Part shown: positions 3,064 through 63,030 of the stretch, in pieces
Layout of the letters: every line of letters begins with the position of its first letter
How positions within the stretch are numbered: the first letter of the stretch is position 1
Sequence record: NC_047754.1
Reading direction: 5' to 3' (one strand)
DNA length: 64,000 nt
Source of the DNA: Escherichia phage phiAPCEc03
Position numbers and translations under genes: made by a program
Notes under the pieces: model-generated
Databases searched by the model: none
Told to the model about the DNA's origin: nothing
Seen by the model: the letters and a program-made list of their open reading frames with translations, nothing else

Positions 3064-3549
3064 ATGGACCATAGAACAAGTATTGCACAAGCTATGGTTG
3101 ACCGAATCTCTAAACAAATGGATGGTTCTCAACCTGACGAATATTTTAATAACCTATACGGAAACGTTTCTCGTCAAACTTATAAATTTGAGGAAATACG
3201 AGAGTTTCCTTATGTGGCAGTTCATATCGGAACTGAAACTGGGCAGTATCTTCCTTCGGGCCAACAGTGGATGTTTTTAGAACTTCCAATCCTGGTGTAC
3301 GATAAAGAGAAAACAGACATTCAAGAGCAACTTGAAAAACTCGTAGCGGATATAAAAACCGTTATTGACACAGGTGGAAATTTAGAATATACTGTTAGTA
3401 AACCTAATGGATCGACCTTCCCATGTGAGGCAACTGATATGATCATTACATCAGTTAGTACAGATGAGGGTCTACTGGCCCCATATGGTTTAGCAGAAAT
3501 AAATGTAACAGTGAGGTATCAGCCTCCACGTAGGTCACTTCGCAGATAA
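3064..3549 (+). CDS. Tail terminator / tail completion protein (T5 p142-like)
   Basis: 161 aa ORF immediately upstream of the tail tube gene; position and size agree with T5 p142 as recalled. Confidence 0.45.
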   Translation: MDHRTSIAQAMVDRISKQMDGSQPDEYFNNLYGNVSRQTYKFEEIREFPYVAVHIGTETGQYLPSGQQWMFLELPILVYDKEKTDIQEQLEKLVADIKTVIDTGGNLEYTVSKPNGSTFPCEATDMIITSVSTDEGLLAPYGLAEINVTVRYQPPRRSLRR

Positions 3550-40465: not shown

Positions 40466-43304
40466 GTTCGGACAGTACTTCTTCTGCCATAGCCTTCTCT
40501 TCCTCTGTCATGAATTTGAAAGGAATTGGCATACACTCGATTTTACAATAGGTTCTGTACCAGTCTACGATATTTTCAGTGTTCATATCCTTACCAATAC
40601 CCATCATACCAAGATACATTCTAGCATATTTTGGGTTAGCACTCTGACCTGTTTTAAGGAAGAAATCTTTCTTCTTACCTTTCAGAGCTTCTATGAATGG
40701 TTTGATAGTAACATTTGAACACTTCTTAATATCTTCCCAGAACATCTCGTGCATCTTATGGAAGAATGCAGCTCGATCATTAGGTTTATCTTTGATATAT
40801 TGTTCAACATGCTCAACTGTTACATCTTTAATAGACTCAAGATGATAGTAGCGAACAAGAAGTAGTTTAGCTTCGTACGCATCTGCATGGCGTGGAGCAC
40901 AATAATCAGGAGTTGAATATAAAATAGCTTTGATTCGCTCTTCCGTATACTCTTTTCCTGCACCTTCGATAGTTCCCCAGCTTTCACTGAAAATATCAAT
41001 AGTTGCACCCTGATCAAGCAAGTAATAACGTAAAGTACTAGTATAGTTCCTAGACTCCAGCTCCCTACGACGTGCGTATAATTGCTGTGCTAACTCCAGC
41101 CAACCTTCATCAATGTTATATTGTTCAGAACCTGCGGAGAATCCACTCGTAGATTTATCAATGAAATAATAAATGTTCTGAGCGCCACGGTCGCGCCTGA
41201 TTGCTTGGAAACGCATGTTTGGCGCTTGGTTACTAGTTCTAGTAATAACGAATACGTTATCAAAGTAGTTAAAGTCAACTCCACTCGTTACGGATGGACT
41301 ACATAATAAGCAATCAATTTGTTGATCAATTAGCTCATTAGTTGTGTAATCCAGAATACGTCTAATATCCACATCAGACGTAGAGTTTGAGTGGATTTCC
41401 TTAACTAACGCACCCGTATTACGACGCAACGCCATGCCCTTCTCATTCAGTTCATCTGGTCCACAGTCAGATACTAGGATAGATTTCTCACCCATCTCTA
41501 GAGATGTCTGAAGTGCAACCCAAATACTGGATTCATCAGGAAACTCATAAGCATGAGCTTTTGACAGCATTCTACGGTGATGATTATAAAATGCAACCGG
41601 TTTATCAAACTCAATCAAGGAACCATATGCTTCAATTGTTTCTGCACTAATATCACCATCAGATAATATAATGATTTTTGCAGTTGCAAGAATGTCCCGA
41701 AGAACCTGAATACATTCACGACGTTGTTTAACAACCGGGGCGAATAATAGGTCATTCATTACAGCGTCACATTCATCGATAAAGATTGCATCAATTTGAC
41801 CAATAAAACTCTTGAACTTATGCAAAGAGTGAATAGTTGTGGACATACGGTCAATAGCACCACGCTTAAAATTGAGCATATCTACAGACTTATCATATTG
41901 TCCTGCACTAAATTTCTTGGCATTTGAAGATACCAGTGCTCTAGTATTGGTAATTGCTAAGAAATTACCTTTAATAACTCCTGAGTCTAACCAACGCACA
42001 ACCGCCGTGGTTTTACCTGTACCTAGACTTGCTTTTACAAAAGTCATATAACCTTCTGGTGGCACAGTATTTAATTTCAAGAAGTTATCAGTTTCTAGAG
42101 AATTAGTTTCTAGCTTTTTAAGTGGAATACCTTTTAAAACATCTGGTATATCACGTTTAGAATTATTAACAAACGCTTTCAGAGCCTGCTTACGACCGTT
42201 GTTAAAATAATCTTGAATATTACGACTATTATCTTTAGTTGCAATATACTCAGATAAAGCTGGGCGGATCTCCTTCTCTAGCCAACCAAAATCTACACCA
42301 TCCTCTAGTGCTCGGTGATAGAGTTTAGGAATAATACGTAGATATACACCATCCTCAGCTTCTTCTAACTCGCTGATGGTTTCTTCTACTTTATCAGAGG
42401 CAGCCTTTTTACCTTTAATTTGATCGAGTAAGGAGTAGAACTCCTCTTTAAACTCTCCTCTAGTTGTTTCATAGTCAACTAGATTATTGGGTAAATTTAC
42501 TTTTGAGCCTTTAACAAATACCAGACGTGAAGCACCCTCCGCTTTAAACGGATCTACTATACCATCAGTAAATAAAGGATCTGCAAAGTAATGGAGCTGT
42601 ACGGAAGAGTAATAAGCTAAGTCGGCAATATCAAAGCCATACTTTTGTCTACTACTTTCGTTGATAGATGTAAATAAGAACTTGATTTGACCCTGAGTTA
42701 CTTTAACATTAGATTCTAGTATTAAGTGCATTCGGATACCTGGTTTTAGCCCAGCCGAAGACGATGCATGAGCAATAAACCCTGCATCAAGAGGAAACAT
42801 GTCCTCACTAATACTATTTAACATTCTAATAATATGTCGAGCCATGCCAACAAGATCAAACTTGTTACAACCACCTGTATCTACAATACCATCCACGTCC
42901 ATTGCAATTATATGACTTGGGTTAGATACATTAAAGTTGCCCTTCTTACGTCGCACATTATTTTTAGGTGCAAGACATCGACCTCGTACCGCAACGATAT
43001 GAGGGTCAGACGTTAAACGTCTCATAAGAGGAAGCATTTCTACTAGGGTTTGAGGATCAACTTCATCAATTACATCAAACTTGAAGGGCATTGAAGCTGG
43101 TTTACCTTCAGGATGCTTTGAGGAAAATCTTTTAGCAAAAAGATAGTCTTCTGCTTTAACTTCTCGCCAATTGCCTGTGGCTAAATCGCGATGAAATCCT
43201 GCATGACCTTGTAGGATTGAGAACACAACAATACTCCTGTGTTGGAAATGAAATAAGTTTTCTTTAGGACTATTCAGAAAGAATAGAACAACTGTTACTG
43301 TCAA
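40440..43304 (-). CDS. Large replication protein with P-loop NTPase/helicase domain (start uncertain: TTG at 43304 or ATG at 43091)
   Basis: Walker A SLGTGKTT and Walker B IFIDECD in central region; 954 aa as listed. Confidence 0.55.
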   Translation of the reverse strand: MTVTVVLFFLNSPKENLFHFQHRSIVVFSILQGHAGFHRDLATGNWREVKAEDYLFAKRFSSKHPEGKPASMPFKFDVIDEVDPQTLVEMLPLMRRLTSDPHIVAVRGRCLAPKNNVRRKKGNFNVSNPSHIIAMDVDGIVDTGGCNKFDLVGMARHIIRMLNSISEDMFPLDAGFIAHASSSAGLKPGIRMHLILESNVKVTQGQIKFLFTSINESSRQKYGFDIADLAYYSSVQLHYFADPLFTDGIVDPFKAEGASRLVFVKGSKVNLPNNLVDYETTRGEFKEEFYSLLDQIKGKKAASDKVEETISELEEAEDGVYLRIIPKLYHRALEDGVDFGWLEKEIRPALSEYIATKDNSRNIQDYFNNGRKQALKAFVNNSKRDIPDVLKGIPLKKLETNSLETDNFLKLNTVPPEGYMTFVKASLGTGKTTAVVRWLDSGVIKGNFLAITNTRALVSSNAKKFSAGQYDKSVDMLNFKRGAIDRMSTTIHSLHKFKSFIGQIDAIFIDECDAVMNDLLFAPVVKQRRECIQVLRDILATAKIIILSDGDISAETIEAYGSLIEFDKPVAFYNHHRRMLSKAHAYEFPDESSIWVALQTSLEMGEKSILVSDCGPDELNEKGMALRRNTGALVKEIHSNSTSDVDIRRILDYTTNELIDQQIDCLLCSPSVTSGVDFNYFDNVFVITRTSNQAPNMRFQAIRRDRGAQNIYYFIDKSTSGFSAGSEQYNIDEGWLELAQQLYARRRELESRNYTSTLRYYLLDQGATIDIFSESWGTIEGAGKEYTEERIKAILYSTPDYCAPRHADAYEAKLLLVRYYHLESIKDVTVEHVEQYIKDKPNDRAAFFHKMHEMFWEDIKKCSNVTIKPFIEALKGKKKDFFLKTGQSANPKYARMYLGMMGIGKDMNTENIVDWYRTYCKIECMPIPFKFMTEEEKAMAEEVLSELGATNEDA

Positions 43305-61473: not shown

Positions 61474-61644
61474 ATGAAATCAGTTGTAATTATTGGTGTT
61501 AACACTCGCGGTATTCGTACTACGAAAACTGTTAAAACTTCTAACGTTGCTGAAATCACTACGAACCCTAAAAAGTTTGATTTCGCCAAAGTCTCAGCAG
61601 TTATGACAGAACAATCTTTTAACCAAGCGTTAGGAATGAAATAA
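61474..61644 (+). CDS. Hypothetical small protein (below ORF-track cutoff)
   Basis: 56 aa ORF (MKSVVIIGVNTRGIRTTKTVK...) with SD GAGAGGAAG; stop overlaps next start (TAATGG). Confidence 0.4.
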   Translation: MKSVVIIGVNTRGIRTTKTVKTSNVAEITTNPKKFDFAKVSAVMTEQSFNQALGMK

Positions 61645-62087
61645 TGGAAGAGAATATTTTAGATGTTTTGCGTAGAGCTTTGCAGGATTCTAAGTTTAAT
61701 GGTTCTGATAAAGAAGTCGCTAAAAGCTATCAGACCATAATCGGGGATCTTCAGCGTATTAATAAAGATTTCATCACTTCTGAACAATTTGTGTCTTATC
61801 TCAAAGCTCAACTAAAAAGCATTAACCAGATGAAAGCTAAACTTCATGGTCAAGATCTTGATAGTTATAGCTTGCAGTCCGCTCAGTATGAATACATTCT
61901 AAATAAGTGGTTGCAGGAGTATCTGCCTCCTCAGTTATCTGATACTGAAATTCGTGAGTATTTTGCAGAACTGGTTAAGTTAAACCCAGGTATTACCAAA
62001 GCTCTATTAATGAAAACTATTAAGGCAGAATTTCCTGGACGTTATGATGGTAAAACAACTGCTTTGATTGCTAGTGAATTTTTCTAA
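61644..62087 (+). CDS. GatB/YqeY-domain protein
   Basis: 147 aa; C-terminus EIREYFAELVKLNPGITKALLMKTIKAEFPGRYDGKTTALIASEFF resembles YqeY/GatB C-terminal domains. Confidence 0.55.
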   Translation: MEENILDVLRRALQDSKFNGSDKEVAKSYQTIIGDLQRINKDFITSEQFVSYLKAQLKSINQMKAKLHGQDLDSYSLQSAQYEYILNKWLQEYLPPQLSDTEIREYFAELVKLNPGITKALLMKTIKAEFPGRYDGKTTALIASEFF

Positions 62088-62095
62088 AAATTCAT

Positions 62096-62124
62096 TTGCT
62101 AAATGCTTATAAATTCTGTATAAT
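62096..62124 (+). promoter_or_regulatory. T5-type early promoter driving the tRNA/ncRNA region
   Basis: TTGCTA at 62096-62101, 17-bp spacer, TATAAT at 62119-62124; no protein-coding ORF follows for ~900 nt. Confidence 0.7.
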
Positions 62125-62339
62125 ATATTCATAAATTAGGGAACAGCGAGCCGATTACGCTGAGTGCATAATCCCAACCGGAGCGCATTGAATAGAGTCG
62201 GTGGGTTAGTTGTAAAACTAGTACACAGGGGGCGGCAATCCCGGTTAGTGGCTAGAACGTGTAAAATGAGGCGTCTGAAACCTCTCCCCTAAACTCTTCT
62301 CTAATTTATAAATAGTGGGGTGTGGAAATCACTTATGTA

Positions 62340-62420
62340 GTAACACTGCCGTCCTAGTATAATTGGTATTATTAAGCCGTAACTGGTGGAAGATGTAGGT
62401 TCGAATCCTACGGTCGGTAA
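62340..62420 (+). ncRNA. tRNA-like element with canonical T-arm (possible degenerate tRNA)
   Basis: Canonical T-arm GTAGG-TTCGAAT-CCTAC at 62395-62411 and D-loop-like TAGTATAATTGGTA; I could not fold a full cloverleaf by hand. Confidence 0.3.
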
Positions 62421-62498
62421 GAACTGGATAACTGGTGCTTTTAACGTAAAAGCTTCCGAGGTTAGTTGCGCACTGCCTAAACCACGCGGTAGTTGGTT

Positions 62499-62520
62499 CC
62501 AGACTAACCAACCAGTCTGC
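62499..62520 (+). other. Stable hairpin in ncRNA region (processing site or terminator)
   Basis: CAGACT-AACCAACC-AGTCTG inverted repeat. Confidence 0.35.
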
Positions 62521-62921
62521 TGAATAGTTTTATTACGATTTAACTATGTCCAGGCTAAAGAAGAACTTTAGAAGGTATTCTAGGATAGTGAAGTTCTTTC
62601 TCCATATCGGAGTAGTTTTTCAAGCTATCCACAAAGTGGGAAATGCTGACATGAGAGATGTCACTAATGGTGCACAATAGCACAGGTAATTCGCGATAAC
62701 TCCTGTTGAGTAGCAGCAAAAGGCGGGAAGTCATGACCCCAAGCCTAACCGAGTCCTCAATATACCGCAGGACATAACCACTAAGTCACCCTGACTTAAA
62801 CTGGAAAATAATAGACGTTACTGTATTTTGTCTTGAAATACTTAATGAGTGAGACTTAGGACTCTCCCGGTATCGTCTGTATTTTTAAGAGTTTTTACGA
62901 GAGTTCTTAAAAATACTTAAA

Positions 62922-62996
62922 CGGGGTGTAGTCTAAGGGAGAGGCAGGAGTCTTCTAAATTCCTTTATGCAGGTTCGAATCCTGTCACCTCGGCCA
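62922..62996 (+). tRNA. tRNA-Arg (anticodon UCU), CCA encoded
   Basis: Hand-folded cloverleaf: acceptor CGGGGTG/CACCTCG (one G-U), U8, D-stem GTCT/AGGC, anticodon stem GGAGT/ATTCC with loop CT-TCT-AA, T-arm GCAGG-TTCGAAT-CCTGT, discriminator G then CCA. Confidence 0.7.
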
Positions 62997-63030
62997 ATTT
63001 TATTAACTGTAACTAAAACAAAGGAAATAT

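Follow-up and report, generated by a model that had tools for sequence, protein, structure and literature searches.

GOLLD and ROOL are phage-encoded RNA molecules of more than 500 nt that often lie near tRNA islands and form homo-oligomers, recently shown to be cages made of RNA only; in GOLLD the 3′ region is conserved, the 5′ region varies and the linker sometimes contains tRNAs (10.1101/2024.12.08.627333; PMC5737381). Large structured RNAs without a known function are rare in bacteria and phages, and the known examples, GOLLD, ROOL, OLE and raiA, come mostly from hosts that do not lend themselves to manipulation. We describe here the architecture of RNAX, an RNA of 0.65–1.3 kb with covarying helices, a tRNA mimic and invariant motifs, which is carried by phage T5 and hundreds of its relatives. 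Our reference copy lies in a stretch of 64,000 nt from Escherichia phage phiAPCEc03 (sequence record NC_047754.1; hereafter, the window), which runs antiparallel to the standard T5 map.

RNAX resembles GOLLD and ROOL in being phage-encoded, longer than 500 nt, rich in helices, located at a tRNA island and of no known function, and it resembles GOLLD further in its variable 5′ part, its conserved 3′ part and the tRNA-type element inside it. The hosts differ: RNAX is found in lytic phages of Enterobacterales, GOLLD and ROOL mainly in Firmicutes, Actinobacteria and environmental phages. RNAX phages infect Escherichia coli, Salmonella and Klebsiella, in which genetics, RNA sequencing, pull-downs and cryo-electron microscopy are routine. 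Because T5 and E. coli are so tractable, RNAX offers a good experimental entry to the unexplained association of giant phage RNAs with tRNA islands.

Modules resembling tRNA are also embedded in other long non-coding RNAs, such as the YrlA Y RNAs and MALAT1 and MEN-β with mascRNA, and in MALAT1 the RNase P cut at the tRNA-like module sets the RNA ends. RNAX shares with YrlA and MALAT1 a tRNA-shaped domain that lacks a decoding anticodon loop and forms one end of a long helix within a larger RNA; the likeness is one of fold. Within T5 itself, the tRNA island holds seven more 'stable RNAs with unknown functions'. These, namely RNAI, RNAIII, RNAIV and RNA2H and the tRNA-like RNA1, RNA2 and RNA3, share the region and annotation class of RNAX but measure 73–172 nt, compared with RNAX lengths of 636–719 nt (T5 and DT57C) and about 790 nt (window).

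The gene-free interval is the rnaX gene of T5-like phages

The window belongs to a T5-like phage (Tequintavirus). Many T5-like phages of Salmonella and Escherichia share 99% identity with it over about 1 kb around the locus, and T5-like phages match the region 62125–63000 at 93.9–99.4% identity; matches occur in 574 phage records, with at least 80% of the query covered in 307. The interval between the promoter and the tRNA-Arg gene is the ortholog of rnaX (RNAX), which is annotated as a misc_RNA, 'stable RNA with unknown functions', in the reference genomes of T5 (NC_005859, locus T5s08, 40848..41566, 719 nt) and DT57C (636 nt). The T5 annotation gives the order promoter P 16-17, rnaX and then tRNA-Arg directly. 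The window has the same synteny, with P16-17 driving RNAX, a T5.081 homolog upstream and tRNA-Arg(UCU) directly downstream. Identity to T5 is 91.7–98.6% over 62292–62996, with homology to most of the length of T5 rnaX, and both T5 and DT57C are 94–96% identical to the window RNAX across the parts in common.

The gene-free stretch is the T5-family rnaX gene, encoding one long folded non-coding RNA. As the locus is already annotated in T5, this finding by itself is not new; the window provides a new RNAX ortholog that has a 5′ domain absent from the T5 laboratory strain. The T5 annotation is silent on structure, on function and on the tRNA-like domain inside the RNA. In the literature that we searched, the architecture, the tRNA mimic on helix P2, the cassette-like variability, the set of GUGG and CCAC motifs, the palindromic loop and the spread over three phage lineages appear to be undescribed.

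A sequence-only reading of the window had placed a promoter at 62096–62124, a tRNA-Arg(UCU) gene further downstream and no protein-coding open reading frame (ORF) before 63031, and all of this holds up. The promoter is found at that position and coincides with the annotated P 16-17 of T5; with a 17-nt spacer and 10 of 12 consensus matches it would not stand out by consensus alone (4 such sites, compared with 4.8 expected in shuffles), and it is kept in all homologs. T5 early promoters such as PN25 have the arrangement ...TATAAT AGATTC ATAAATT..., and because the window promoter has this arrangement in common with them, we place the transcription start, and with it the 5′ end of RNAX, near 62131, as the position of the −10 box also suggests. 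The tRNA-Arg gene is found by both ARAGORN and the Rfam tRNA covariance model.

RNAX is non-coding. Between 62125 and 63030 the longest ORFs have 45 codons on the plus strand and 60 on the minus strand, each plus-strand frame has 21–23 stops in 265 codons, and all ORFs of the window gain stop codons or vanish in homologs. GenBank records over the RNAX interval (for example, MT233524, OR515477 and MK770119) carry 2–5 'hypothetical protein' coding sequences (CDSs). We regard hidden small protein genes as highly improbable: ORFs of 42–60 codons do exist in the window and are annotated in many records, but each is stopped or lost in homologs, indels between homologs disregard reading frames and substitutions are compensatory for RNA helices.

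A tRNA-like domain at the tip of a covarying helix

Helix P2 is the best-supported element of the RNAX structure (Table 1). In an alignment of 27 sequences, 99.4% of its cells are paired and five pairs are altered on both sides; in a second set of 19 more diverse sequences, 98.7% are paired and 7 of the 12 pairs are altered on both sides. For P2 together with the acceptor stem, T stem and hairpin h1, 94.4% of cells are paired in the 27-sequence set, compared with 86.5% in shuffles, and 13 pairs change on both sides, compared with 8.3. Sliding the partners in the whole tested structure by 1–3 columns leaves 31–43% of cells paired over the two sets (33–42% in the 27-sequence set) and almost abolishes double changes. 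G·U pairs in the RNAX helices agree with the plus strand.

An internal loop, AACACU/AAGA, joins P2 to the tRNA-like domain, whose flanks are paired as P2. Because P2 carries the domain in this way, the domain forms the end of a long arm rather than a gene of its own. The sequence-only reading had recognized the T arm at 62395–62411, which is real, but could not fold a cloverleaf around it by hand. This part does not stand, since the arm sits within a cloverleaf-like fold at 62348–62419 that the Rfam tRNA model detects above its gathering score and ARAGORN rejects as a tRNA. The same reading had seen several hairpins in the remaining sequence, which is borne out by helices with covariation well beyond the slid and shuffled controls, and had suggested that degenerate tRNAs or other small RNAs may lie there. 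We instead find one large conserved RNA, with no further tRNA-like element at E ≤ 10.

The acceptor stem, the D arm with G18 and G19 and the T arm with a UUCRANY loop are those of a canonical tRNA. Instead of the canonical anticodon stem of 5 bp and its loop of 7 nt (U33 and a purine at 37), there is a stem of 3–4 bp with a 6-nt loop. No CCA is encoded, and the AAGA that follows the acceptor stem belongs to the internal loop. Covariation is seen in the acceptor and T stems in both comparative sets. The D stem alternates between GUAU/AUAU, AGUU/GACU and GUCU/AGAC, a covariation read by eye, and the elbow nucleotides, the D-loop GG and the T-loop UUCGAAU, are retained. The 'anticodon' arm is hypervariable among relatives: AAS21 has a stub with a GNRA cap, R2-01 a 6-bp stem closed by a pentaloop, L070 and the Sealy-type phages a rod of 10 bp and My1 a palindromic hairpin, and a loop that looks canonical, of the tRNA-Pro(UGG) type, is present in Erwinia phage KEY alone. 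In GenBank records and ARAGORN output, the domain is labelled variously as tRNA-Ser, -Sec, -Leu, -Pro, -OTHER or pseudo. These labels, like the CDS calls across RNAX, are probably annotation artefacts; in practical terms, many deposited T5-like genomes carry spurious CDSs or mis-typed tRNAs here.

The domain raises the possibility that it, and perhaps the whole of RNAX, is a tRNA-mimicking decoy that titrates or misleads host factors acting on tRNA, shielding the phage tRNA supply; candidate targets are anticodon nucleases, other tRNA-targeting defence toxins and tRNA-processing enzymes. The elbow and the stack of acceptor and T stems are under selection, the locus lies at the edge of the T5 tRNA island, and the 'anticodon' arm has been swapped like a cassette between near-identical phages (KEY and AAS21, L070 and the window, Sealy and KpnB01), as is typical of arms-race loci. 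A T5-encoded tRNA is, moreover, described as neutralizing PARIS, a tRNA-cleaving system (PMC11464382). We nevertheless consider a decoy unlikely. Homologs L029 and L030 have no tRNA-like domain yet keep the rest of RNAX, so the core cannot exist merely to display it; a hypervariable arm is equally explained by absent constraint; RNAX is not known to counter any defence system; and most of the arms (6-nt loop, GNRA loop or pentaloop) lack anticodon-loop geometry, which would make them poor mimics for anticodon nucleases.

Compensated helices around invariant motifs

RNAX is modular, consisting of a dispensable 5′ domain, domain I with P2, a linker, domain II and a 3′ domain, and many of its helices are held by compensatory substitutions around invariant unpaired motifs. 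This combination of invariant unpaired motifs, compensated helices and exchangeable periphery is that of ribozymes, ribonucleoprotein scaffolds and ornate RNAs, and is unlike that of decaying spacers.

Four short motifs, the GUGG sequences A1 and A5 and the CCAC sequences A4 and A7, covary as a set: in My1 and DU_PP_V all four are changed, to ACGG with CCGU. In Enterobacter phage KKP_3711, A1 (AUGG) and A4 (CCAU) are changed and A5 and A7 are not. This double change and the domain-level fold lead us to favour the pairings A1:A4 and A5:A7, which make two closed domains; A1 probably pairs with A4, closing domain I, with A7 as the alternative partner. Two possible pairing schemes for a covarying set, in an RNA that lies upstream of tRNA-Arg and a Band_7 gene, are also what might be expected of a cis-regulatory leader that senses a ligand, tRNA or protein and controls whether transcription continues into tRNA-Arg and the SPFH/Band-7 gene, perhaps by toggling between the two GUGG/CCAC schemes. 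Such a leader, with or without the toggle, is very unlikely: neither an intrinsic terminator nor an anti-terminator is present, a U-tract is missing from the terminal hairpin, the downstream genes vary between lineages, a length of 650–1,300 nt far exceeds that of known bacterial leaders, and riboswitch and T-box models give no match.

In domain II, RNAalifold on 15 diverse sequences predicts 12 pairs, 8 of which have both-sided changes. Two of its sequences, GTCATGAC and the loop palindrome GUCAUGAC, are each found in 47 of 48 unique homologs. The terminal hairpin has 18 RNAalifold pairs, 7 of them with both-sided changes, and remains at the end of RNAX even where ORFs part RNAX from tRNA-Arg. 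The linker hairpins show compensatory differences among the window, fuchur, KKP_3711, Klebsiella phages and R2-01, and other lineages have different modules in this region. A tentative helix, Px, would make a three-way junction with P2; it is consistent across homologs (GGAA/UUCC and CGAA/UUCG) only if a 1-nt shift is permitted. A pairing of GGUGU with ACACU was rejected, as it never varies and would require a sterically implausible pseudoknot across P2.

Table 1 Positions of RNAX, its structural elements and flanking features in the window
Feature	Position	Strand	Remarks
Sigma-70 early promoter	62096–62124	+	−35 TTGCTA 62096–62101, −10 TATAAT 62119–62124; T5 'promoter P 16-17'
RNAX, large structured non-coding RNA	62131–62921	+	T5/DT57C rnaX orthology; no conserved ORF; no Rfam family but tRNA
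Variable 5′ domain	62131–62309	+	Closed by P1 (62131–62143 with 62297–62309)
5′-domain hairpins	62144–62148/62158–62162; 62186–62191/62198–62203	+	RNAalifold consensus
Motif A1 GUGG	62315–62318	+	Inside invariant GUGGGGUGUSGAA
Helix P2	62328–62331/62433–62436; 62333–62336/62428–62431; 62338–62341/62423–62426	+	12 bp, conserved G·G and C·C mismatches
tRNA-like domain	62348–62419	+	Rfam tRNA 35.9 bits (gathering 29), anticodon arm unaligned
tRNA-like acceptor stem	62348–62354/62412–62418	+	Covaries
tRNA-like D stem	62357–62360/62369–62372	+	GG in D loop
tRNA-like 'anticodon' stem	62376–62378/62385–62387	+	Hexaloop GUAACU
tRNA-like T arm	62395–62399/62407–62411	+	Loop UUCGAAU; stem covaries
Hairpin h1	62437–62442/62448–62453	+	93.8–95.7% paired, both-sided changes
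UUCC	62454–62457	+	Candidate partner GGAA 62324–62327 (helix Px)
Variable linker, local hairpins	62460–62632	+	Sequence comparison by eye
Linker h2	62460–62465/62473–62477	+	GGCAG/CUGCC and GACAG/CUGUC
Motif A4 CUAAACCAC	CCAC at 62482–62485	+	Follows h2
Linker h3	62492–62498/62506–62512	+	GUUGGUU/AACCAAC and GUUGAUU/AAUCAAC
Linker h4	62524–62529/62542–62547	+	
Linker hA	62555–62560/62566–62571	+	
Linker hC	62583–62588/62625–62630; inner 62589–62592/62619–62622, 62600–62603/62609–62612	+	
Domain II	62636–62781	+	Closed by A5 GUGG with A7 CCAC (favoured pairing)
Motif A5 GUGG	62636–62639	+	
Domain II hairpin	62647–62652/62658–62663	+	Covaries
Domain II hairpin	62683–62686/62702–62705	+	Loop with CGCGAUAAC
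A6 hairpin	Stem 62725–62727/62738–62740	+	Presents loop AGUCAUGA
Palindromic 8-nt loop GUCAUGAC	62730–62737	+	In A6 hairpin
Domain II hairpin	62753–62757/62769–62773	+	Covaries
Motif A7 CCAC	62778–62781	+	
3′ domain	62784–62878	+	Conserved; junction tentative
Hairpin AGUCA-CCC-UGACU	62784–62796	+	Conserved
Motif UAAACUGGAA	62797–62806	+	
3′ junction closing helix	~62813–62821/62870–62878	+	Lineage-specific sequence, complementarity kept (by eye)
3′ hairpin	62823–62828/62836–62841	+	
CUUAAU	62841–62846	+	Conserved
Terminal A/U-rich long hairpin, no U-tract	62879–62895/62900–62916	+	5 nt before tRNA-Arg
tRNA-Arg(UCU), CCA encoded	62922–62996	+	ARAGORN; Rfam tRNA 49.3 bits; annotated in T5 and many relatives

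Conservation in three phage lineages

Homologs were gathered from a phage collection, IMG/VR and metagenomes. RNAX is conserved in three lineages of the Demerecviridae, namely Markadamsvirinae (Tequintavirus, Epseptimavirus and unclassified phages of Pantoea, Erwinia and Enterobacter), Mccorquodalevirinae (My1 and DU_PP_V) and the Klebsiella phages of Sugarlandvirus, with lengths of 649–1,301 nt. The scan of IMG/VR and metagenomes gave matches in T5-like contigs only. A specific RNAX motif has no match in 185,579 bacterial and archaeal genomes; a looser motif has 18 matches there, scattered across unrelated phyla and fewer than a chance estimate. Two apparent homologs were discarded, as a match in Providencia phage PR1 and a first match in My1 consisted of a T5-type promoter only; My1 does have a true RNAX homolog.

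The alignments consist of strongly conserved blocks with lineage-specific inserts between them. An extra domain of about 200 nt follows P1 in Klebsiella phages, L029, L046 and R2-01, and in several phages ORFs are inserted between RNAX and tRNA-Arg, with the same long hairpin still ending RNAX. The locus is a hotspot for mobile ORFs.

This variability bears on a further alternative, that the region is a passive leader or spacer: a processed 5′ leader of tRNA-Arg, holding a decaying tRNA pseudogene and the scars of mobile elements, that merely delivers the tRNA. The tRNA-Arg gene does come directly after, homing-endonuclease and other ORFs insert and modules are swapped here, the 5′ domain and the tRNA-like domain can each be lost, the folding z-score of the whole RNA is ordinary, and one metagenomic variant, L076 (contig OLXE01000031.1), has a 10-nt deletion that takes out the D arm of the tRNA-like domain and leaves the rest of RNAX intact. 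A passive leader is nonetheless distinctly unlikely. Invariant motifs and compensated helices are shared between subfamilies that are at most about 70% identical elsewhere in the region, and the changes in three arms of the tRNA-like domain are compensatory rather than degenerative. The core and terminal hairpin also persist where ORFs part RNAX from tRNA-Arg, as in Klebsiella phages, in which the gap exceeds 500 nt and includes two ORFs.

A probable autonomous RNA freed by tRNA processing

We think it rather likely that RNAX is a structural or scaffold RNA that is autonomous and is freed by tRNA-processing enzymes. The early sigma-70 promoter, a strong one, would give a transcript that joins the RNA, about 790 nt long, to tRNA-Arg(UCU), and an RNase P cut at 62921/62922, the 5′ end of tRNA-Arg, would free RNAX and set its 3′ end. 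Both ends would then be sequestered, the 5′ end by P1 at the predicted +1 and the 3′ end by the terminal hairpin, which ends 5 nt before the cut and presumably protects it. Ends buried in helices would explain the term 'stable RNA' used by the T5 annotators. The tRNA-like domain may also serve as a handle for RNase P or tRNA enzymes. By analogy, RNAX would be the T5-family counterpart of the ornate RNAs GOLLD and ROOL, a stand-alone architectural RNA rather than an mRNA, a cis-regulator or a set of degenerate tRNAs; as a folded scaffold, it would engage tRNA-binding or translation machinery in early infection and would possibly self-associate through its palindromic loop.

A stronger proposal is that RNAX represents an unrecognized class of ornate self-assembling RNA in phages of Enterobacterales. 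Its conserved tertiary core would dimerize or multimerize via GUCAUGAC, display an exchangeable tRNA-shaped domain on P2 and act early in infection, with the tRNA or translation machinery of the host, or else defences directed at tRNA, as the target. This is possible but doubtful. The invariant self-complementary loop could mediate self-association; oligomerization is known for GOLLD and ROOL, whereas for RNAX the loop is only a hint.

Several observations weigh against an autonomous RNA, or against parts of the structure proposed for it. First, the 'stable RNA' label comes from GenBank annotation alone, and literature searches on RNAX and the T5 stable RNAs turned up only database annotation, with no data on expression, processing or function. 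Second, natural phages can do without large parts of RNAX: T5 and DT57C lack 62143–62291, about 150 nt of the 5′ domain, and keep P1 as a plain hairpin; an HNH-endonuclease ORF stands in place of the 5′ domain in fuchur, mar003J3 and L027; and in L029 and L030 an unrelated hairpin of about 45 nt replaces the whole tRNA-like domain on the same stem base.

Third, not every helix passes the comparative tests. P1 and the two hairpins of the 5′ domain are conserved with no both-sided changes in the tested set (compensatory P1 changes are visible by eye in My1), and Px failed, with 57.9% of cells paired in a fixed alignment register. The linker hairpins and the helices of the 3′ junction were read by eye only, and RNAalifold on the whole core paired A1 with the A7 region, contrary to the GUGG/CCAC pairing favoured here. 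Folding energy is not unusual either: RNAX as a whole has a z-score of −1.17, its 5′ part one of +0.34 and its 3′ part one of −2.39, so that the case for structure is a comparative rather than an energetic one. The chance of meeting a palindromic 8-mer among about ten conserved motifs is roughly a few percent. Finally, the GOLLD and ROOL covariance models give no match to the window, even at E ≤ 10, nor to seven divergent homolog loci; without a match in sequence or structure RNAX is not a member of either family, and the analogy is ecological only.

Other known RNAs fare no better. No family in Rfam 15 covers RNAX, the only matches being to tRNA, and the Y RNA families have no match in the window at E ≤ 10 or in the seven divergent loci; nor was a Ro or Rsr context noticed, although no search aimed at it was made. 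We rejected transfer-messenger RNA (no hit with ARAGORN or Rfam), group I and II introns (no Rfam match at E ≤ 10, and RNAX lies between genes, not inside one), and RNase P RNA, 6S RNA, riboswitches and T-boxes (no Rfam matches). Hits to SpF41, Hrs13 and mir-3167 at E ≤ 10 are chance matches, far below gathering scores and mostly driven by the T arm of the tRNA-like domain.

Should RNAX prove autonomous, the question of why phages put giant RNAs beside tRNA genes would become directly testable. Should it belong to an ornate self-assembling class, the genetically tractable T5 and E. coli system would gain a functional counterpart to GOLLD and ROOL. A search for antisense targets in the other 63 kb of the window found no excess of 12–14-nt complementarity to RNAX.

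Module exchange, mobile elements and neighbouring genes

In 62265–62292, the window differs from L005, L011, L080 and L081 in carrying one of two alternative hairpin modules, GAGGCGUCUGAAACCUC and GGGAGCUGUCCC, which are distributed regardless of phage relatedness. The otherwise near-identical phages KpnB01 and Sealy likewise have different hairpin modules in the 5′ domain. The pattern suggests that these modules are exchanged as cassettes by recombination.

In some Epseptimavirus phages, a gene for an HNH_3 endonuclease replaces the 5′ domain exactly, right behind the promoter, and in My1 an ORF of the T5orf172/MUG113 type (GIY-YIG-like) lies between RNAX and tRNA-Arg. In Yersinia phage R2-01, a stretch without annotation starts with similar sequence. 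These cases lie at 1073–1552 in L007, 873–1355 in L008, 3488–3970 in L027, 3176–3721 in L077 and about 2240–2760 in L080.

T5 itself (L003, about 3081–3170) and one metagenomic relative (L069) have an insertion of about 82 nt inside RNAX that is absent from the window RNAX. Inverted repeats, TACTTACTT...CATAAGTAAGTA, form its termini, and a 23-nt motif, AGTCACCTTGACWTAAACTGGAA, is directly duplicated on its flanks. From its sequence, it looks like a small hairpin insertion or one resembling a miniature inverted-repeat transposable element, with target duplication.

The gene upstream of the promoter (61644–62087) is commonly annotated as a 'tRNA amidotransferase'; its match to Pfam YqeY is below threshold (19.7 bits, compared with 27). 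We discarded its YqeY-like product as a protein partner of RNAX, a weak lead given the sub-threshold match and the absence of the gene from beside RNAX in Klebsiella and My1-type phages. The protein is only 53–62% identical between phages in which RNAX is about 94–99% identical, which points to mosaic recombination at the border of the upstream gene and RNAX.

The 13-mer ATATTCATAAATT, from the start region of RNAX just past the −10 box, recurs at about 59276, where it probably marks another early promoter of the T5 type, from which transcripts would begin with the same sequence. Downstream, the phage tRNA-Arg(UCU) scores 49.3 bits in the window, compared with 69–73 bits in Klebsiella, Pantoea and Enterobacter relatives, and its acceptor stem has a G3·U70 wobble pair, a classic identity element of alanyl-tRNA synthetase.

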